Assembly: GCA_963759775.1 (NCBI GenBank)
Contig: CAVXAH010000001.1
Coordinates: forward strand, 464,682-528,681
DNA length: 64,000 nucleotides
Direction of reading: 5' to 3'
Source of the DNA: an uncultured bacterium
Lineage (GTDB): Bacteria; Patescibacteriota; Minisyncoccia; Phycocordibacterales; Phycocordibacteraceae
Position numbers and translations under genes: made by a program. The notes below the pieces were generated by a model that ran no database searches, was not told the origin of the DNA, and saw nothing but the letters and a program-made list of their open reading frames with translations. Shown here in pieces: positions 6,925 to 56,642 of this stretch (positions within the stretch are counted from its first letter, which is position 1; every line of letters begins with the position of its first letter).

Positions 6925-7266
6925 ATGGACGGATTTCATCACTTACGAGGACGTGCCCGGCTTCCAAGTCGTCTCGGGGAACACCTCGAGCCATTTCCCG
7001 CGGAGAGTTTTTTCAAGAAGAATCTCGACTACCTTATGTACGGTGTCGGGATTCTGGCCCCGTTCGCACTTCTCCCTCAAATCATTCAGATTTATTCTAC
7101 GCAAAGCGCCTCGGGTCTCTCACTCGTTACATGGTCCTTGCTCGTCACGTTCAACCTATTATGGGCAACGTACGGGTTTGCTCACAAGGAAGCGCACATT
7201 CTTCTCGCAAACGCGTTCATGGCGCTTTTTAACCTCACTATCGTAATCGGAATTTTGATGTATTGA
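6925..7266 (+). CDS. SemiSWEET / PQ-loop small sugar-transporter family protein (3 TM)
   Basis: PQ motif LLPQIIQIYSTQSASGLSL plus two further TM helices. The true start may be ATG 7036 (MYGVGILAPF). Confidence 0.6.
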   Translation: MDGFHHLRGRARLPSRLGEHLEPFPAESFFKKNLDYLMYGVGILAPFALLPQIIQIYSTQSASGLSLVTWSLLVTFNLLWATYGFAHKEAHILLANAFMALFNLTIVIGILMY

Positions 7267-47867: not shown

Positions 47868-49046
47868 CTAGGCAATCTTTCTGACGTAGGTTCGGTAGCT
47901 CATGAATCCAAGGCTAAGAGCGGCAAAACCGAGTACGGCAAGCGAATACAAGAGCCCGGTCGTATCGGTAAGAAACCCGAAGATCGCAAGTCCAATGATC
48001 GCCATGAGATTTGCAATGGAAGATTGGATCGACAAGACGGTTGCCCGTATGCCACTTGTGATGTGTCGGTGCAGATAATCTCCGACAAATGGGCGCATAA
48101 AGCCTCTCACGATGTTTTGCACAACCACTAAGTAGGCAAAGGACATAATGGGAACAAGACTCATGAGTAGGATCGGAAGACCAAGACAAAGGATCATTCC
48201 AAGAACGCAAGCCCGTTCCCCAATCCACCCCTCAACCTTATGCGCATTGTGGCTCGAGATCCACGCCGTTGCATTCAAGCAGAAGAAGATAACGCCATAG
48301 TAAGGAAGTGGAAGCTGCACCAATTCAAAGTACGGGTTGTAAGTGAAGAACCATACTTTTGAAGTGGTTGCGAGTAAGGCCGCAAATCCTACCATCCAAC
48401 GTACCTCGACTGACTTTATGACGAACATGGCGCCCTGCCTCAGCGTTTGGAGTTGTTTCTCTACCGAGTAGTGCTCTGTCTGTACAGGCTCTTTGAAGAA
48501 GAACGCTGCGACGAGCGGAATGAGCATAAACGGCAGGCCAATCCATAGCGGTAGTCGCAAATCAACATCAGCAAGGAATCCGACAGTAAGCGAACAACAG
48601 GCAATCAGAATCAATCGTGCCCCAATTGCTTGCCCTTCGATACGTTTGTATTCCGACTCCCTTCCTTGTTCCTTAAGAGTGTCGTACAGAAGAGCCGTAT
48701 CAGCTCCTGACTGCATGCTGAAGCCGATTGCCCACAAGATATTTCCGATCCACGCTTCAAGTGGAGTGCGCATGATGGTGAAGAAGAAAGCACTCCCGAA
48801 CAGAAAGACTCTACCGATGACGATGCTTTTCTTTCTCCCGATCACATCGGCAAGTGCTCCCGAAGGAATGTCGAGCAGAACACAGATACAGAGCACAACG
48901 GACTCCATGTAGTAGATATCCGGTAAGTCCATGTGTGCCAGCTTGCCGAGCGAGGTGATCAGAATCGGACCCCAGAGAAGAGGTTCATTGAAGATGGCGT
49001 ACAACCGATACAGCAGAATATTGCGTCCAGCGTCAATTTCGTTCAC
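47868..49046 (-). CDS. MFS transporter (12 TM)
   Basis: GALADVIGRKKSIVIGR is the MFS loop 2-3 motif. GTG start preceded by GGAGA. Confidence 0.85.
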   Translation of the reverse strand: MNEIDAGRNILLYRLYAIFNEPLLWGPILITSLGKLAHMDLPDIYYMESVVLCICVLLDIPSGALADVIGRKKSIVIGRVFLFGSAFFFTIMRTPLEAWIGNILWAIGFSMQSGADTALLYDTLKEQGRESEYKRIEGQAIGARLILIACCSLTVGFLADVDLRLPLWIGLPFMLIPLVAAFFFKEPVQTEHYSVEKQLQTLRQGAMFVIKSVEVRWMVGFAALLATTSKVWFFTYNPYFELVQLPLPYYGVIFFCLNATAWISSHNAHKVEGWIGERACVLGMILCLGLPILLMSLVPIMSFAYLVVVQNIVRGFMRPFVGDYLHRHITSGIRATVLSIQSSIANLMAIIGLAIFGFLTDTTGLLYSLAVLGFAALSLGFMSYRTYVRKIA

Positions 49047-49289
49047 AAGATTCTCCTTGAGAGAAGGTATGGATTATTTACGTGTGCGAGTTGTCAAAGA
49101 ACACGCTCTGCTCAAGAAAACGAGAAAACCTCGGCTTCCGCAGAGCCGAGGTTTTTCTAAAGGAGGGGAGTGATGAGAAAAATCGCGGCTATGCGCAAGG
49201 GAAAACAGCAAGAAGTGAAATCTTTGCCGTTTCGCACATGACATATCCGCGATTCAAATTCATAGATACATAATAATTAATCTGAGAGA
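49047..49289 (-). promoter_or_regulatory. Promoter plus ~200-nt structured leader with an intrinsic terminator upstream of the MFS gene (candidate riboswitch or attenuator)
   Basis: On the minus strand: TTGACA (49289-49284), 16-nt spacer, TATTAT (49267-49262). A closing helix AATCGCGG (49254-49247) / CCGCGATT (49188-49181) encloses 58 nt. A 12-bp hairpin (49155-49125) is followed by TTTTCTCGTTTTC. Then GGAGA and the GTG start at 49046. Confidence 0.45.
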
Positions 49290-49342
49290 TTTGTCAAATC
49301 ACATTGACTTGCGTTAATTAGAATTAAGTGTACAATGTTTTC

Positions 49343-50335
49343 ATGAATAACGTAACTTCTATGTTGCCGCCAAGCATTAAGGATTGGCGGGACCTCATAG
49401 GAAATACTCCACTCGTCAAAATTGAGCGTCTTTTTGCTGATAGCGAGCTTAATGTGTTCGCGAAATTGGAATCCTTCAATCTCGGAGGTAGTACGAAGGA
49501 TCGTCCGGCACTACTCATGCTCGAAAGTGCTTTGAAAGAAGGTGGAGTGAGTAAGGGAGGGACGGTGATCGAGTCTAGTTCTGGCAATATGGGTATCGGG
49601 CTTGCGCAAACTTGCCTGCGACACGGACTTAAATTCGTCGTGGTCGTTGACCCTCGTACCACGACCGCAAACATAAACGTAATGAAAGCGTTGGGAGCGA
49701 CTATTGAAATGGTTAATTCACTCGGCAAGAATACTGGTAGCTACCTCGAGTCTCGTCTCGAGAGAGTGGATCAGCTTCTCAAGGAAATTCCCGGGAGTTA
49801 TTGGCCGAATCAATATGCGAACGAGAATAATCCAAGGGCGCATCATAAAACAATGCAGGAAATCGATGACGCTTTGGGAGGCAAGGTCGACTACCTCTTT
49901 TGCGCAACTGGAACGTGCGGGACAATTCGCGGATGTTCAGATTATTTGCGACAGAAAGGGAGAGCTACAAAAATAATTGCGGTTGATGCTGAGGGGAGCG
50001 TCATCTTTGGCGGAAAACCCGGGAAGCGGCTGGTGCCAGGGCACGGTTCGTCAGCTCGATCGAATTTATATCGAGATGATATGGCTGATAAGGTTGTGCA
50101 CGTGGGAGACGAAGCCTGCGTCATCGGGTGCAGGCTACTCCTTGAAAAGGAAGCTATTTTTGCTGGTGGATCTTCCGGTGCAGTAGTCAGTGCTTTTCTA
50201 AAAATGAAAAACGAGATTCCTGCTGGCTCAAACGTCGTCATGATTTTTCCCGATCGCGGAGAAAGATATTTGGATACCGTTTACGATCCAGCTTGGGTCA
50301 ATGAAAATCTTGGAGAGGTTTCTATGAATATATAG
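49343..50335 (+). CDS. sbnA: SbnA-like PLP-dependent enzyme (N-(2-amino-2-carboxyethyl)-L-glutamate synthase; cysteine synthase fold)
   Basis: GNTPLV...AKLESFNLGGSTKDRPA...SSGNMGIGLA...YWPNQYANENN...IIAVDAEGSVIFGG...FAGGSSGA...IFPDRGERYLDTVYDPAW tracks S. aureus SbnA block by block. TACAAT box 6 nt upstream of ATG 49343 (the ORF track starts at GTG 49328). Confidence 0.8.
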   Translation: MNNVTSMLPPSIKDWRDLIGNTPLVKIERLFADSELNVFAKLESFNLGGSTKDRPALLMLESALKEGGVSKGGTVIESSSGNMGIGLAQTCLRHGLKFVVVVDPRTTTANINVMKALGATIEMVNSLGKNTGSYLESRLERVDQLLKEIPGSYWPNQYANENNPRAHHKTMQEIDDALGGKVDYLFCATGTCGTIRGCSDYLRQKGRATKIIAVDAEGSVIFGGKPGKRLVPGHGSSARSNLYRDDMADKVVHVGDEACVIGCRLLLEKEAIFAGGSSGAVVSAFLKMKNEIPAGSNVVMIFPDRGERYLDTVYDPAWVNENLGEVSMNI

Positions 50336-50337
50336 AT

Positions 50338-51360
50338 ATGTCACACAAAAACGATAAGCTCTGCATTCTCACGGGCGATGATGTTGGGAAAATTATTTCT
50401 GGCAAAGAGAATCGCATCATTGAGATTATTCGGGATGCGTATATTTCACATCAAAAAGGTGACAGCACCTTACCTCATTCTACGTTTCTTCGTTTCCCAG
50501 ATAAGGCAAAAGATAGAATTATCGGTCTACCCGCATACATTCAGGGCGCAGCAGGCATTAAATGGATCGCCTCATTTCCAGAGAACGTTAAACACGGTAT
50601 TGATCGTGCTTCGGCAGCCATTATCTTAAATTCCCTTGAAACGGGTCGCCCGTACGGAATTCTTGAAGGATCGATCATAAGTGCAAAGAGAACCGCGGCA
50701 AGTGCCGCGCTTGCTGCAAAAGTGCTTGCGGGCAATAGAACGATTGAAGACGTGAGTCTCATTGGGTGCGGGTTGATTAATTTCGAGATTCTAAAATTTC
50801 TCGTCTCACAGTTCAAAAATATTAAAGCGGTAAACATATTTGACCTCGATACAGAAAAAGCGAAAAAGTTTCTTTCAAAAACGGTTGAAATCGTTGATGC
50901 CGACGTTCGCATATGTGATAGTGCCGCAGAAGCATACGGGTCATCAAAACTCGTATCTTTTGCCACAACGGCATCTGTACCACATGTGAATGACACGGAC
51001 CTCTTTAGGGGGGATGCGATCATCCTCCATCTCTCCCTACGTGACTTAGGTGTGGGTATCATTAAAAACAGCATTAACGTTGTTGATGATCTCGATCATG
51101 TGAACCGAGAGCATACGAGTATTCATCTTGCTTCTCAAGAAACAGGGGCAACGAACTTTGTCACCACTTCTCTCGGGGAACTTCTGCTTGGAGTCAAACA
51201 GGCCCCCGAGTCCGGCAAACCCGTTATTTTTTCTCCGTTTGGCCTTGGGGTTCTCGATATACAATTGGCACGATTTGTATACGAAGAAGCTGCCAAGGAA
51301 GGAATGGGGACTGTAGTTAAAGATTTCATTCCGTCGAGCTGGCTCGAGAGACCTTACTAA
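50338..51360 (+). CDS. sbnB: SbnB-like NAD-dependent dehydrogenase (ornithine cyclodeaminase/mu-crystallin family)
   Basis: GIKWIASFPEN...RASAAIILNSLETGRP...SAKRTAASAALAAK...LIGCGLIN... is collinear with SbnB (GIKWIGS, RASGVIILND, SSMRTAAVS, IIGCGLIG). It starts 3 nt after sbnA. Confidence 0.75.
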   Translation: MSHKNDKLCILTGDDVGKIISGKENRIIEIIRDAYISHQKGDSTLPHSTFLRFPDKAKDRIIGLPAYIQGAAGIKWIASFPENVKHGIDRASAAIILNSLETGRPYGILEGSIISAKRTAASAALAAKVLAGNRTIEDVSLIGCGLINFEILKFLVSQFKNIKAVNIFDLDTEKAKKFLSKTVEIVDADVRICDSAAEAYGSSKLVSFATTASVPHVNDTDLFRGDAIILHLSLRDLGVGIIKNSINVVDDLDHVNREHTSIHLASQETGATNFVTTSLGELLLGVKQAPESGKPVIFSPFGLGVLDIQLARFVYEEAAKEGMGTVVKDFIPSSWLERPY

Positions 51361-51367
51361 AAATCTT

Positions 51368-52744
51368 ATGTTCGAAAAACTCCATTCAAGTGATCGGGCA
51401 AAAATTGTGACGGCATCTGTACCGGGAGCAAAATCGAGCGCTTTGCTTAAGAAGCAAGACGAACTCGAAAGTAATAATCGCTCGTATCCAAGAGGAACTC
51501 CGATTGCGTTTGCAAACGGGAAAGGTGCGATCATCGAGGACGTCGATGGCAATGCATACATCGACTTTCTCTCCGGATGCGGCGTTTTTAATCTTGGGCA
51601 TAACAATCCCTACATACTCGACGCAGTAAATGGTCGAGGGGACGCTCTCACTCAAGCAGTCGATTTTCCCACATCGGCAAAGATCTCTTTTATGGAGCGT
51701 TTGAATCAAGCTCTTCCACCAACACTACGCGATAAGGTAAAAATAAACTTCGGTGGGCCTACGGGCTCAGACGCCGTTGAGTCGGCGCTTAAGCTCGCTC
51801 GCATTGTCACAGGTCGACATACGATCATTGCGTTTCAGGGTGGATACCACGGAATGACCATGGGTGCGCTTAGTGTGACCAGTAAACTCTCTCATCGCAA
51901 ATCAGTCACGCCCCTTATTCCTGGAATACACTTCATGCCATTTTGTAGTCCGTACCGTTGTCCTTTCGCACGAGTCGATGGACCATGTACGGGAGAGTGC
52001 ATACGGTATTTCGAGTATTGTTTAACGAATCCACACTCGGGCATTGATAAGCCAGCGGCAATAATTATTGAACCCGTACAGGGTGAAGGAGGGACCTACA
52101 TACCAAGCACGGGGTGGCTTGAACAGGTGACCGATATCGCCAGAAAGAACGGCGTACTCGTTATCTTTGACGAAATTCAGTCCGGATTCTATCGAACGGG
52201 AAAACTATTTTCCTTCGAACATACACGTGCTGTTCCAGATATAGTCACCATGTCGAAAGGAATTGGAGGAAATGGATATCCTCTCTCGCTCATTTTATAT
52301 CGTAAAGAGTTTGATGTATGGGAACCAGGCACCCACATCGGAACGTTTAGAGGCAACCAGCTTGCAATGGTGGCTGGTTCGGCTGCGCTCGAATTTATCG
52401 ATAAATACGACGTTGCTTCGCATACCGCGAAGCTTGGTGAAGAGATGATTACAAATCTAAAAGAGGTTCAGAGAACTTCACGCTACATTGGTGATGTGCG
52501 CGGGATAGGAATGATGTTTGGTATTGAATTTGTTCAGGATAAGTCCAAGAAAGATGCGTATCCAGAAGCAGCAAAGCTGGTGAAAAAACTCTGCTACGAA
52601 AATGGTCTTATCGTTGAACTGGGTGGTTACTACAGCAACGTGGTGCGCTTTTTACCACCGCTCATTTTGACAGAAGCAATCGCGAAAAACGGCATTAAAA
52701 TATTTGCCGATGCGGTTCAGGAAATGGAGAATACTATTTCGTAG
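51368..52744 (+). CDS. Class-III PLP aminotransferase, diaminobutyrate-2-oxoglutarate transaminase (EctB/Dat)-like
   Basis: DVDGNAYIDFLSGCGVFNLGHNNP, FQGGYHGMT, IIEPVQGEGG, VIFDEIQSGFYRTGKLFSFEH, TMSKGIGGNGYPLS (catalytic Lys). Confidence 0.75.
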   Translation: MFEKLHSSDRAKIVTASVPGAKSSALLKKQDELESNNRSYPRGTPIAFANGKGAIIEDVDGNAYIDFLSGCGVFNLGHNNPYILDAVNGRGDALTQAVDFPTSAKISFMERLNQALPPTLRDKVKINFGGPTGSDAVESALKLARIVTGRHTIIAFQGGYHGMTMGALSVTSKLSHRKSVTPLIPGIHFMPFCSPYRCPFARVDGPCTGECIRYFEYCLTNPHSGIDKPAAIIIEPVQGEGGTYIPSTGWLEQVTDIARKNGVLVIFDEIQSGFYRTGKLFSFEHTRAVPDIVTMSKGIGGNGYPLSLILYRKEFDVWEPGTHIGTFRGNQLAMVAGSAALEFIDKYDVASHTAKLGEEMITNLKEVQRTSRYIGDVRGIGMMFGIEFVQDKSKKDAYPEAAKLVKKLCYENGLIVELGGYYSNVVRFLPPLILTEAIAKNGIKIFADAVQEMENTIS

Positions 52745-53264
52745 CAGGTTGTATCGCAATCAGTTGGCGGATAATCATATCTTCCCATTTCGTGATATGC
52801 GCGGGCTTAAAGTCAAACCAGACACGCATGAAGTCCTCACGCGAAAGTATGCGCAGTGTGCCAATTTCCGGGTCCTGTAGATAGATGTTCGAAGCGTCAA
52901 GCCCTACCACGACCGAATAGTGTCCATCAGGTACTTCACTGTCGCCATAATCCGTTCGCCCACGAGTAAACCAATTAACGATGACTGGTACGCCACGATC
53001 GAGCCATTGCTGCATGGAGTCGAACGAGGAATTGTTTTCAATCTCAACAGTAAAACCATATGACTCGGCCGCTTCTTTTAGAGAAGCATCGTCGGTGCCA
53101 AGCTCAAGATTGCGTTTGCATTTCTGCGCGATCTCCTCCTCATTTTTCTCAAGATTCCAAAACCCGAGAACCATCTTGAGGCTTGCGGGGCCACAGTAGC
53201 CACCGCCAAGTGTTTCTTGGAAGGGTTTTACTTGCAACAATTTCACTTTCTCCATACGGGTCAT
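52734..53264 (-). CDS. Stand-alone C39-like (papain-fold) cysteine peptidase domain protein
   Basis: Catalytic Cys context GGGYCGPASLKMVL and His context PDGHYSVVVGLD. 176 aa with no ABC fusion. Its 3' end overlaps the convergent aminotransferase gene by 11 nt. Confidence 0.65.
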   Translation of the reverse strand: MTRMEKVKLLQVKPFQETLGGGYCGPASLKMVLGFWNLEKNEEEIAQKCKRNLELGTDDASLKEAAESYGFTVEIENNSSFDSMQQWLDRGVPVIVNWFTRGRTDYGDSEVPDGHYSVVVGLDASNIYLQDPEIGTLRILSREDFMRVWFDFKPAHITKWEDMIIRQLIAIQPATK

Positions 53265-53268
53265 TTTA

Positions 53269-54639
53269 TCATTTTACGCATTTCAAAACCACGCTCCTCA
53301 TTTGATTCATCAAAGAATCGACGTCCTGACGATCATCCCCAATTACAACAACGCCCATGACCGGACGATTCGAACTTAAAAAAGAGACTAGGATACCGCG
53401 CTGTTCTTGATCTATAGGATAGAGTAAATCAGAAAGCGTTTGTAAGATTTCTGTCGGACTCAACGTAACGTCTCCGTATCGGAATGAATCTTTTGAAAAT
53501 ACATATCGATTCTTGAGGTTGTTCAGCTTGAGATGGGAAATTGCATCATACACGTGGGTACCTCCGGTCATTCGAGCATTGCATTCGAGAATATATAAAT
53601 TTCCGTCCGTGCCAGCTGCAAAATCAACATCGAATACACCCCTATACCCGAGCGTAAAAAGCTTGTTACCGATGCAATCGAGAGCTATTTTGATACGTTC
53701 ACTGATCTCGGCAAGAGACGTGTCGATTGATATACCTTCAAATTCGCCTTCTCGCGTTACTTCTTGTCCGCAGATGTAACTAAATGCAAATCCAGTTTCT
53801 GATATGCATCCTTCCCCAGAAGGAAAGCCGCCAGCGAGACTTGCGTCCGTTGGAATAAATTCTTCGACGACATAGGGTGCAAATTCCCAGATGTCTTCCG
53901 ATTGAAGTAGGTTGTCCAACCATGTGGCCAGTTGTGACGTATCAAAGCGTTTAGCTTCTTCCTCATCAACAATCTTAATCCCCCAACCGGATTCACCTTT
54001 GTGGATCTTTATAACGAATCCCTTATTGGCATTCAGGAATCCTAATATGGCTACAAGAACCTCCATTTTGTCTTTGCATATCGAGCCATTCGGTATTTTC
54101 ACTCCATCTTTCGGAAAAAGGCCGATGATTATGGTACGAAATCCATTTTTTGAATCGATAGTTTCCGCTAGTTCAGCAGGCTTTTCTATCTTAGATAAGT
54201 TAACCACACTGAGGTTGCCAATCTCATCTCGCAGCAGTTTTACGAGTGCAACATATTCTTTCGTTACTGCGTATGAGCAAATACGCGTAGCGGGATTCCC
54301 GCGAAGAAGGTCATAAAGCTTATCCATCAATTCCGCATCTCTTGTGATCGCCGTACAAAGACGAAGCCCCGGCTCCTTAGGCCACAAGTTTACTACGTTG
54401 CCGTACCCGAGGTGCCCCTTGTTACATTTGAGCAATGCGGCTGGAATTGGCTCAGGCGTAATGATGATTTTGTTATCTCCTCCCCAAAACTGCGCACGCT
54501 GGGACAAGTCCATCTCATGTGAGATTCGTTCTTTTCTAGCATCGTTGGAGGTGGAGTTTTCCAAAAGATCGGCAAACGCCTCAGCAGTATTTGCAATAAA
54601 AATGTCTTGTATCCGCGACATATAAAAAGTAAGGGGCAC
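53269..54639 (-). CDS. ATP-grasp family ligase with a long N-terminal pre-ATP-grasp region
   Basis: C-terminal ATP-grasp core GYRGVFDVDFAAGTDGNLYILECNARMTGGTHVY. Central KGFVIKIHKGESGWGIKIV. 456 aa. Confidence 0.65.
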   Translation of the reverse strand: MPLTFYMSRIQDIFIANTAEAFADLLENSTSNDARKERISHEMDLSQRAQFWGGDNKIIITPEPIPAALLKCNKGHLGYGNVVNLWPKEPGLRLCTAITRDAELMDKLYDLLRGNPATRICSYAVTKEYVALVKLLRDEIGNLSVVNLSKIEKPAELAETIDSKNGFRTIIIGLFPKDGVKIPNGSICKDKMEVLVAILGFLNANKGFVIKIHKGESGWGIKIVDEEEAKRFDTSQLATWLDNLLQSEDIWEFAPYVVEEFIPTDASLAGGFPSGEGCISETGFAFSYICGQEVTREGEFEGISIDTSLAEISERIKIALDCIGNKLFTLGYRGVFDVDFAAGTDGNLYILECNARMTGGTHVYDAISHLKLNNLKNRYVFSKDSFRYGDVTLSPTEILQTLSDLLYPIDQEQRGILVSFLSSNRPVMGVVVIGDDRQDVDSLMNQMRSVVLKCVK

Positions 54640-54658
54640 CCAGTTAGGTGCCCCAATT

Positions 54659-55663
54659 CTACATCAATCGTTCGCGTCGTATGGCTGTCACGAGAATCCG
54701 TTCAATCAGGTCCTCGAACCCGCAACCCTCAAAGGACGCCATTTTGGTGAGAGTGTTATTGAGACCATGCGTATTTGGACCAATCCCGGGGTTGTAGTTA
54801 ACCTCGAGCAGGAATACCTCTTCGTCCTCACGAACTCGGAAGTCCATGCGAGCATAGTCCCGGCACTCCGTTGCCACAAACATACGTTTTGTGTATTCAC
54901 TGAGGAGATTCAATACGTCGGTCGGAAGTACGGCTTGCACCATCTGTTCCTGCCTACCGCCCCACTTGTATTCGTAGGATCGGATTTGCTCAAAGGGGTT
55001 TGCGGCTCCCTCGAACAAGAACTCGAGCGCAGGAAGTGTGTGCAGGTCATCGCCGTTGCCAATTACTCCAACTGAAATCTCACGACCAAGCACGAATGCT
55101 TCGACAATCGCCGGTTGCCGATAGAGTCGCAACGCGTCGCCTATTTTCCGTTCCAATGATTCCAGCTTGTGCACGACGCTATCGAAACGGATCCCAATAC
55201 TTGCCTCCTCTCGTACTGGCTTAACAATGAGAGGAAACGGAAGCCCATTCTGTAGCATCTCGTTCTCCCTCCGAAATATTTGATACAGCGGCGTTGGAAC
55301 TCCGTTTGCGAGCGCGACCAACTTTGTTTGCGCTTTATCGAGCGTGAGGCTCATGTTATGGGCCGACGCCCCGGTAAACGGGATTTCAAGCGCCTCAAGC
55401 ATCATCGGCACCAACACCTCATTAGTGTTGGTGCCTCCGAATGCCTCGGCCATGTTGAGGACAATATCGAAGGATCCTTTCCGCGCCTTGAGTTCTTCCC
55501 AGAGCACCATTGAAGCCTCGAGTGTCTCGACGTCGTATCCCTTTGACCGCAGAAGGGAGACGACGAGCGGGACAATGATCCGGATTTCCTGTTCACAGAT
55601 CAGATCCCGCTCGTCGCCCTTTTTGAGTGCGGTAGCGACGTTGTAAAGAATCAATATTTTCAT
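54659..55663 (-). CDS. D-alanine--D-alanine ligase-family ATP-grasp enzyme
   Basis: FPLIVKPVREEASIGI..., EAFVLGREISVGVIGN, YARMDFRVREDEEVFLLEVNYNPG. Strong GGAAGGAGGAAG Shine-Dalgarno before ATG 55663. Confidence 0.75.
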   Translation of the reverse strand: MKILILYNVATALKKGDERDLICEQEIRIIVPLVVSLLRSKGYDVETLEASMVLWEELKARKGSFDIVLNMAEAFGGTNTNEVLVPMMLEALEIPFTGASAHNMSLTLDKAQTKLVALANGVPTPLYQIFRRENEMLQNGLPFPLIVKPVREEASIGIRFDSVVHKLESLERKIGDALRLYRQPAIVEAFVLGREISVGVIGNGDDLHTLPALEFLFEGAANPFEQIRSYEYKWGGRQEQMVQAVLPTDVLNLLSEYTKRMFVATECRDYARMDFRVREDEEVFLLEVNYNPGIGPNTHGLNNTLTKMASFEGCGFEDLIERILVTAIRRERLM

Positions 55664-55676
55664 CGCTTCCTCCTTC

Positions 55677-56642
55677 CTACAGTTGGATGACTTTGTCGGT
55701 GTAGTCCCGGCAACGCGTGATATCGGGAACGTCCCAGAAACCAAGCGGAACCGGTATTTTACCGATGCCTTCGACATCGACGATATATTGCGGCAATGCA
55801 ATTCCAGACATGCGTTTGTGAAGCGCCGTCATGATTTCGCGTTCCCGCGCCATATCGCAGACAAAATGCTCAAGACCTTTTACGTAGTCGCACCGATACA
55901 GGTAATACGGAATGACGCCAGCGTAGTAGAGCTTCTTGAAAAGCTCTTCCAGAACTTCTTCTGCGTCGTTTACGGCCTTGAGAAATACCGTTTGCGAGAG
56001 CATTGGAAATCCGTATGCACGTATGGTGCGCAGCACATCCAGGACCTCGTAGTCGAGTTCATTCGGATGATTTGCGTGCACCAACACGTACGTCTGGAAG
56101 CTTGCTCCGCTTGCCTGAAGCTCACGAAGCGCTTTTACCACTTGTGGCGAAGCCATACTTTTCGGCGAGTGGATCGGTAGACGAGTTCCAATGCGAACCA
56201 CACGCACCGATGGAATCTCTCGCAATCCCGCAATAACCCGTAGCAACGTCTTGGGAACGACAAACGGATCGCCGCCGCTCAAGATTACATCATCGACTTC
56301 CGGGTGAGAGCCGATGTACTGAAGCGCTGACTCAATGTCAGCTTCCAGCAAATCTCCCTCCGGTGAACCGATCTGTCGGATTCTTGTACAGAAGCGACAG
56401 TGAGCTGCGCAGCGGCATGTCGTTTTCCAAAGCACCCGGTTTGGATACTTGTGAACGATTCCTTTGACGGGTGAGTACGCTACCTCTTCTCCGAGAGGAT
56501 CGTTTGGTACGACAACTCCCTCGAAAGCTGGTTGGATTTGGAATTGCTTCGCAATGGCCGTACTGCCGTCACGAATTTTTCTCTGCAAATGCGCAGTAAT
56601 TCTCTCTTTCATGATGGACCTCACTTGGTTAACGAAGGACAA
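55677..56642 (-). CDS. KamA-family radical SAM aminomutase (lysine 2,3-aminomutase / EpmB-like)
   Basis: CAAHCRFCTR (CxxxCxxC), DVILSGGDPFVVP, VRIGTRLPI, HANHPNEL. Confidence 0.8.
   Translation of the reverse strand: MSFVNQVRSIMKERITAHLQRKIRDGSTAIAKQFQIQPAFEGVVVPNDPLGEEVAYSPVKGIVHKYPNRVLWKTTCRCAAHCRFCTRIRQIGSPEGDLLEADIESALQYIGSHPEVDDVILSGGDPFVVPKTLLRVIAGLREIPSVRVVRIGTRLPIHSPKSMASPQVVKALRELQASGASFQTYVLVHANHPNELDYEVLDVLRTIRAYGFPMLSQTVFLKAVNDAEEVLEELFKKLYYAGVIPYYLYRCDYVKGLEHFVCDMAREREIMTALHKRMSGIALPQYIVDVEGIGKIPVPLGFWDVPDITRCRDYTDKVIQL

Follow-up and report, generated by a model that had tools for sequence, protein, structure and literature searches.

A candidate leader-peptide transcription attenuator with a leaderless upstream reading frame before an MFS transporter gene of Patescibacteria

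In the leader of whiB7, efficient translation of a uORF (upstream open reading frame) leads to termination while translation stress leads to read-through, and the regulon that follows includes the tap pump of the major facilitator superfamily (MFS) and the eis acetyltransferase (PMC10274678). Slowed ribosomes also induce the drug transporters of bmrB-bmrCD (PMC4191407) and mef(E)/mel (PMC4335068), for which the inducers are known. Leaderless polycysteine short open reading frames (sORFs) of mycobacteria sense cysteine through consecutive Cys codons (bioRxiv 10.1101/834739), and in E. coli the toiL uORF of topAI-yjhQ is, going by the title of its source, a sensor of several classes of antibiotics that target the ribosome (PMC12121999). 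The subject of this report is a 64-kb stretch of DNA from an uncultured member of the Patescibacteria (contig CAVXAH010000001.1), referred to here as the window, and in particular its positions 49047-49345, a divergent intergenic region with an MFS gene on the minus strand at one side and a gene for a pyridoxal phosphate-dependent, SbnA-like protein on the plus strand at the other. We propose, at a probability of about 0.68, that this region controls the MFS gene by ribosome-mediated (leader-peptide) transcription attenuation, and the whiB7 uORF attenuator appears to be the closest described logic.

In the proposed mechanism, the first transcribed nucleotide would lie at approximately 49263 and coincide with the AUG that opens a leaderless 24-codon uORF. 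The leader holds four mutually complementary segments, with region 1 near the 5' end, region 2 some 60-85 nucleotides (nt) downstream, and then region 3, which is the terminator's 5' arm with its loop, and region 4, which is the 3' arm. Pairing of regions 1 and 2 gives a helix termed P1, pairing of regions 2 and 3 gives an antiterminator of about 20 bp and pairing of regions 3 and 4 gives the terminator, where P1 plus terminator and the antiterminator are mutually exclusive. In the predicted OFF state region 1 would pair with region 2, so that regions 3 and 4 remain available for the intrinsic terminator, and in the ON state region 2 would pair with region 3 and thereby use up the 5' arm of the terminator. 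In a leader that is not translated P1 would form first and transcription would terminate; in a leader translated at speed the ribosome would reach the UAG inside region 2 and mask that region, so that the terminator would form here as well. A ribosome slowed or stalled in the early uORF would cover region 1 instead, and the free region 2 would capture region 3, giving read-through into the MFS gene. The signal would presumably be the speed of translation. Sequence comparison further suggests that the leader family defines a small regulon, consisting of the MFS exporter and two families of GNAT acetyltransferases, that is spread over many Patescibacteria families.

This design resembles that of whiB7 in mycobacteria and other actinobacteria in the order of its parts, a short uORF and then a rho-independent terminator that competes with an antiterminator, and in its outputs, which are MFS and GNAT proteins in both cases. 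It differs in that each target gene here has its own attenuator whereas whiB7 uses a single attenuator for a transcription factor, and in that the uORF is leaderless, lacks alanine enrichment, shares no sequence similarity and belongs to another phylum. The leaders of bmrB-bmrCD in B. subtilis (PMC4191407) and of mef(E)/mel in S. pneumoniae (PMC4335068) likewise place a leader ORF with alternative folds directly upstream of an efflux transporter, but their uORFs depend on a Shine-Dalgarno (SD) sequence and their peptides and structures are unrelated to those described here. The mycobacterial polycysteine sORFs (10.1101/834739) share the use of a leaderless 5' short ORF as a translation-dependent attenuator of downstream genes, without the explicit intrinsic terminator/antiterminator switch seen in this leader. 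The toiL uORF is also regulatory and is described as sensing ribosome stalling (PMC12121999); its sequence is unrelated. The trp, his, leu and phe attenuators follow the same 1:2, 2:3, 3:4 pairing logic with a leader ORF over region 1 and a stop near region 2, in contrast to which this leader has no cognate codon run and its targets are a transporter and acetyltransferases rather than biosynthetic operons. As for toiL, it reportedly acts through Rho-dependent termination and occlusion of the ribosome-binding site (RBS) and not through an intrinsic terminator; yjhQ encodes a GNAT-family protein. The mechanism class is well known, while the leader family, its leaderless design, the phylum and the regulon appear to be undescribed; for Patescibacteria, comparable attenuators or riboswitches did not turn up in our literature searches.

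Support from sequence and comparison extends to the promoter, to the uORF and to the three alternative helices, including how these covary and switch in silico. The leader promoter (positions of all elements are given in Table 1) fits the consensus at 11 of 12 positions and is the sole promoter-like site in 48700-49700, and its TTGACA is kept at the equivalent place in most related loci. P1 pairs AATCGCGG (49254-49247) with CCGCGATT (49188-49181), with 58 nt between the two strands, and is present in the ViennaRNA minimum-energy fold. The terminator stem measures 12 bp (49155-49125) and is followed by CTCGTTTTCTT; its CUCGGC/GCCGAG core is kept across the family, and its 5' arm and loop (49158-49136) double as the 3' strand of the antiterminator. 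Promoter, leader and terminator together form a compact unit of approximately 220 nt. The initial annotation had already recognized a near-consensus promoter, a P1-like helix, a terminator and an RBS with a GTG start on the minus strand, all of which are present at those places, and its view of the region as a terminator-containing, promoter-proximal regulatory leader is borne out. The features exceed what chance would produce, an equivalent arrangement being found ahead of orthologous genes in dozens of genomes.

Comparison was based on loci gathered around MFS orthologues, 80 of them species-representative and a further 3 more closely related. Homologues of the MFS protein (35-78% identity) were found almost exclusively in Patescibacteria (candidate phyla radiation, CPR), which are ultra-small bacteria, with source names including Paceibacterota, Parcubacteria and Adlerbacteria. 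In nearly all fetched loci the gap 5' of the MFS gene is non-coding and 250-400 nt long, and this gap is conserved at the nucleotide level across MFS loci while the gene upstream of it differs in identity and orientation. Of 84 MFS loci from Patescibacteria, 74 have a uORF and hairpin ahead of the gene. An nhmmer profile of the leader matched each locus once, on the sense strand, and the window just once (49228-49092, E = 3e-15). The leaders fall into a long type with two internal hairpins and a short type, to which the window belongs, with one; the logic of P1, antiterminator and terminator is unchanged between them.

The uORF, which lies on the MFS-sense strand and had been missed in the initial annotation, overlaps P1 and ends in or just past region 2. 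In the window its ATG (49263-49261) coincides with the predicted transcription start, 6 nt past the -10 box, whereas the closing TAG (49191-49189) falls within region 2. Homologous uORFs of 23-27 codons were present in 18 of 18 distinct short-type leaders, with a peptide consensus of MNRNxGYCxTEMxKISDLxISACA*. When the ATG was picked solely by its proximity to the best promoter, which makes the choice unbiased, it fell exactly 6 nt after the -10 box in all 17 short-type leaders with a recognisable promoter, and in the same 17 it was in frame with the region-2 TAG without an internal stop, at lengths of 69, 72, 75, 78 and 81 nt. Across the clade of the window the distance from -10 box to ATG was 6-9 nt, most commonly 6 nt. 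Long-type uORFs, found in most MFS leaders, have 36-48 codons and end a few codons past region 2. The distance between two conserved anchors within them varied from 60 to 87 nt and was a multiple of 3 in 37 of 42 cases, and frames +1 and +2 over the uORF interval were open in only 8 and 6 of the 74 leaders, respectively. No family in Pfam or NCBIfam matched the leader peptides.

Covariation was assessed by explicit pair counts on MAFFT alignments of a 42-sequence set and a 17-sequence short-type set, with slid and shuffled controls. For the OFF fold (P1 plus terminator) in the 42 sequences, 79.2% of cells were paired in comparison to 35-47% in slid controls, and double (compensatory) changes occurred at 23 of 34 pairs, a value that 0 of 500 shuffles reached. 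The ON fold (antiterminator 2:3) showed the same behaviour in these sequences, with 81.9% of cells paired versus 42-50% in slid controls and compensatory changes at 14 of 20 pairs (again reached by 0 of 500 shuffles). In the short-type set, which was collected by a terminator-loop pattern and is biased by that pattern, the OFF fold had 79.5% of cells paired (slid controls, 40-48%) with double changes at 20 pairs, and the ON fold was 97% paired and largely invariant. The intrinsic terminator between uORF and structural gene was paired in 94-96% of cells across alignments. The internal hairpin covaries while the uORF reading frame is kept. Most of the conserved positions belong to the switching helices, few unpaired nucleotides being conserved. 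Covariation among relatives, which had been put forward as a check on the initial annotation, extends to P1, terminator and antiterminator alike, all three of which are also conserved.

Thermodynamic folding with ViennaRNA agreed with these alternatives. Unconstrained, the window leader folded into P1 plus terminator at -53.7 kcal/mol. Masking nt 1-30 or 1-40, as by a ribosome on region 1, caused region 2 to pair with region 3 and the terminator to be lost, and masking the footprint of a ribosome at the stop codon restored the terminator. Among the 74 leaders the terminator formed in 64 when unconstrained and in 66 with the ribosome at the stop. In the minimum-energy fold of the full leader of the window, the CU-rich linker between regions 2 and 3 (CUCCCCUCCUUU) also pairs with AAGGAG (49053-49058), and such an anti-SD role of the linker could add translational repression to the OFF fold.

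The strand on which the element acts can be read from its base pairs. G-U pairs are frequent on the MFS-sense strand (for example 21 at one pair), and as each of these would be an A-C mismatch on the other strand they identify the MFS-sense strand as the functional one. The initial annotation had also raised the possibility of a small-peptide gene on the plus strand, encoding 22 amino acids (aa) and placed beside the ATP-grasp and C39-like enzymes; its product might, for example, be the precursor on which these enzymes act. The reading frame does exist and is preceded by a strong RBS-like AAAGGAGGGGAG ahead of its ATG, and ATP-grasp and C39-like proteins are encoded nearby, yet the frame is not conserved and is an antisense image of the switch. 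An antisense RBS with a start and an ORF of at least 15 aa was present in only 5 of 18 short-type leaders, with differing starts and lengths, and in the closest relative, locus L081, the only antisense ORFs of this sort begin with TTG or GTG at other sites and differ in length. Moreover, the length of the antisense open frame equals that of shuffled sequence, the recurring string RKIAAMRK is the antisense reading of conserved region 2, the apparent RBS is the complement of the CU-rich linker, and the ATP-grasp/C39 cluster stands beside the leader in none of the relatives. We consider the chance that this frame is a real gene to be close to negligible.

The internal structure of the leader bears on a second reading, that of a metabolite riboswitch of the OFF type, where P1 and the internal hairpin or hairpins would form an aptamer, a ligand would stabilise P1 and free region 3 for the terminator, and the uORF would be incidental or auxiliary. 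The interior of the leader changes from two hairpins in the long type to one in the short type and few of its unpaired nucleotides are conserved, which may argue against a ligand pocket, although closure by a P1 helix, the presence of internal stems and the overlap with an expression platform make up a layout classical for riboswitches and both P1 and the internal hairpins covary. Most conserved peptide residues correspond to RNA elements, as this reading would have it, and an exporter with N-acetyltransferases would suit a toxic-amine ligand; however, a strict open frame from the predicted +1 to region 2, with insertions and deletions in threes, is unexpected for a pure aptamer. The in-frame uORF across P1, together with an interior that differs between types, points to the ribosome rather than a ligand pocket as the sensor. 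No Rfam family matched either. Rfam 15 returned nothing above noise in the window (E up to 10), in 16 related loci (at the gathering threshold) or in the locus L009 (E up to 10), the noise consisting of a miRNA, PsrR1 and His_leader at about 20 bits. His_leader (RF00514) gave a weak full-length match in L009 (3792-3963; 20.4 bits, E = 0.31, with a gathering score of 49) and none in the window. The initial annotation had proposed a riboswitch or attenuator that could not be matched to a known riboswitch class. The Rfam scans of window and relatives agree with the latter point, and of its two options the attenuator, with a genuine covarying P1, is retained, while the metabolite riboswitch is regarded as unlikely given the conserved in-frame uORF and the variable interior.

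Two further conserved elements lie downstream of the terminator. The first, box D, is complementary to the loop and upper 5' arm of the terminator (in the window, 49105-49111 with 49141-49147), an arrangement repeated in L001-L107. The mean duplex energy of box D with its own partner was -10.3 kcal/mol in comparison to -6.7 (standard deviation 0.2) with swapped partners, the duplex in the window reached -14.4 kcal/mol, and from locus to locus the two partners covary. In read-through RNA this pairing could give rise to a pseudoknot or to an alternative helix, neither of which the attenuator model needs. The second is a box, GUUCUUUGA(C/A)A, kept at equivalent positions in nearly all loci in both MFS and GNAT leaders, which may enhance translation or bind a protein or an RNA. 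These elements could be taken to favour a trans-acting RNA-binding protein or RNA that recognises the CUCGGC/GCCGAG hairpin, box D or the GUUCUUUGA box, with no sensing role for the uORF. Conservation of the stem core and of the GUUCUUUGA box in sequence, and not just in structure, across very divergent genomes is in keeping with such a factor, as is a box D pairing that attenuation does not require. For the stem core, however, the conservation is already explained by its pairing with region 2, which itself pairs with region 1 and stays in frame; there is no syntenic candidate regulator gene as the neighbours vary; and conservation of the uORF is left unexplained. A trans-acting factor of this kind therefore seems distinctly unlikely.

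The GUUCUUUGA box also resembles a -35 element (TTGACA-like, 49096-49091) without a -10 box. A second promoter at this site was considered and rejected, as a promoter scan found no -10 box and as the box abuts the SD sequence in GNAT leaders, where no space for a -10 box is left. This bears on the proposal that the element is an independent gene of approximately 150 nt for a small RNA or small protein, with the TTGACA-like box serving as a separate promoter for the MFS gene. Such a stretch is indeed bracketed by a promoter and a terminator that are both strong, and the box does follow the terminator, but the same scan shows no second promoter, the box reaches the SD sequence and start codon in GNAT leaders, and the element is always directly upstream of and co-oriented with an MFS or GNAT gene. 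A conserved antiterminator, moreover, makes sense only for control of read-through. We regard a separate gene as very improbable and retain the attenuator as the preferred reading.

Further members of the short type came from metagenome contigs scanned with the terminator-loop pattern of the window, which yielded 18 leader-bearing stretches, 16 of them distinct and one of them the contig of L081. Short-type leaders mostly precede not MFS genes but genes for two Acetyltransf_3 GNAT families of about 200-218 aa, which are weakly similar to AAC(6'), SpeG, RimL, MccE, PseH and ArsN1, in all cases far under curated cut-offs. For GNAT family A, homologues are assigned by annotation to Parcubacteria, Paceibacterota or Minisyncoccia, and when four of these were fetched by protein identity alone (44-71%) all four had a short-type leader upstream. 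The window and its relative L081 carry the short-type leader before an MFS gene. The closest MFS orthologues, L082 (78%) and L083 (76%), carry the long type while the MFS gene of the window carries the short type typical of GNAT genes, a distribution suggestive of an exchange of leader modules among the genes of one regulon. As for the transporter itself, the MFS protein weakly resembles TetA(P), Tet(40), the DHA3 family and Tap (45.7 bits versus a cut-off of 750), with weak similarity to EfpA also.

The genes on the other side of the leader (49343-55801) may constitute a small diamino-acid or peptide biosynthetic cluster, which would be unusual for a reduced CPR genome, and are unlinked to the MFS gene in relatives. 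The initial annotation had named the transporter the exporter of this cluster. That assignment did not hold, as the MFS gene and its leader occur in approximately 80 other genomes among unrelated neighbours, with no synteny in relatives, and it is weakened further by the same leader type preceding GNAT genes elsewhere. Its presence in many genomes with varying neighbours indicates that the MFS gene is a conserved lineage gene and not part of the SbnA/SbnB/aminotransferase/ATP-grasp/C39 cluster. The ORF list starts the PALP gene at a GTG at 49328, and an ATG at 49343-49346 (ATGAATAAC) appears more likely; with either start the distance to the -35 box of the leader is approximately 45-65 nt, so the two divergent promoters must be packed tightly. 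A LOOT RNA (RF03000, 86.8 bits) was found at 7141-7265 of the related Patescibacteria locus L046, about 2 kb downstream of its MFS gene. A blastn search of the PLSDB plasmid database with the region gave no match.

Table 1. Positions in the window of the predicted leader elements, the regulated gene and its neighbours.
Feature	Positions	Strand	Basis
-35 box TTGACA	49292..49297	-	promoter scan
-10 box TATTAT, spacer to -35 box 16 nt	49270..49275	-	promoter scan
Predicted leaderless uORF, 24 codons + TAG (MNLNRGYVMCETAKISLLAVFPCA)	49189..49263	-	ORF list, comparison
Region 1, 5' strand of P1 (anti-antiterminator), GAAUCGCGGAUAUGUCA, uORF codons 3-9	49239..49255	-	window fold, covariation
Internal hairpin within uORF, enclosed by P1	49202..49233	-	window fold, covariation
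Region 2, switching segment (3' strand of P1, also 5' strand of antiterminator; holds uORF stop)	49176..49199	-	folds
CU-rich linker (CAUCACUCCCCUCCUUU), antiterminator loop, complementary to MFS Shine-Dalgarno	49159..49175	-	sequence
Regions 3 and 4, intrinsic terminator hairpin	49125..49158	-	folds, covariation
U-rich tract (CUCGUUUUCUUGA) 3' of terminator stem	49112..49124	-	sequence
Box D (GCAGAGC), complementary to terminator loop GCUCUGC	49105..49111	-	sequence, duplex energies
Conserved box GUUCUUUGACAA, between box D and RBS	49091..49102	-	sequence comparison
Shine-Dalgarno AAGGAG of MFS gene	49053..49058	-	sequence
Regulated gene, MFS transporter, 392 aa, GTG start (49046-49044)	47868..49046	-	ORF list
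22-aa sORF of the initial annotation (MRKIAAMRKGKQQEVKSLPFRT), judged not a gene	49173..49241	+	present in ORF list
PALP (SbnA-like) gene	49343-50335	+ (divergent from MFS)	
Ornithine cyclodeaminase-like (SbnB-like) gene	50338-51360		
Class-III aminotransferase	51368-52744		
C39-like peptidase	52734-53264	-	
ATP-grasp proteins, two	53269-54639 and 54659-55801	-	

Several points weigh against attenuation by the ribosome. The whole case is built on comparative sequence analysis and thermodynamic folding. Masking nt 1-40 yielded the antiterminator in only 42 of the 74 leaders (minimum-energy folds), the terminator and antiterminator are invariant in the short-type set because its members were selected by the terminator-loop pattern, and distant clades have a 5' untranslated region of 18-29 nt without an obvious SD sequence before the uORF. 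Further reservations concern the peptide. The uORF peptides have no run of regulatory codons, a feature that defines the amino-acid subclass of attenuators and not the antibiotic or translation-stress subclass. Codons 2-12 of the uORF are enriched in His (5-fold) and Asn (4-fold), Cys is mildly enriched (about 3-fold) and never consecutive, and as the His and Asn enrichment can be explained by RNA pairing constraints, no specific signal is readable from the peptide. Conserved short-type residues nearly all correspond to RNA elements, meaning that selection is demonstrated for the open frame only and not for the peptide.

An amino-acid-specific attenuator was considered and rejected, as the His, Asn and Cys enrichment and a conserved Trp of the long type coincide with AAAAAUCAC, UGAAUA and a hairpin arm; this Trp is absent from the type found in the window. 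Several long-type uORFs begin with a His-rich sequence (MHRHHHHVN in L025, for example), which is suggestive and is also explicable by the AAAAAUCAC pairing constraint.

On the nature of the signal our proposal is more speculative. By analogy with the systems above, the inducer could be a compound that perturbs translation, such as a ribosome-targeting antibiotic or a polyamine-like amine, or a shortage of aminoacyl-tRNA, and the combination of an exporter with N-acetyltransferases as targets points to the detoxifying of an amine or antibiotic that perturbs translation. A tentative and rather doubtful extension of this idea is a regulon of cis-acting sensors free of transcription factors across Patescibacteria, in which the exporter and the two N-acetyltransferase families, each with its own leaderless uORF attenuator, would respond to a specific translation-targeting amine (aminoglycoside- or polyamine-like) derived from host or competitor, sensed by the nascent peptide-ribosome complex or by the RNA (a dual uORF/riboswitch).

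Next to nothing is known of how Patescibacteria regulate their genes, and a 2024 review noted that an inducible expression system for this group is still to be developed and suggested riboswitches as candidates (PMC11665869). If true, the amine-sensing regulon without a transcription factor would mark the first time that a natural inducible switch of gene expression is described in Patescibacteria. The leader family would extend leaderless-uORF attenuation to a phylum in which our searches found no prior description, and would do so with one attenuator per target gene in contrast to the whiB7 hub of mycobacteria. The regulon, comprising the MFS transporter and two GNAT families, may also offer a way to the function of genes that otherwise lack annotation.

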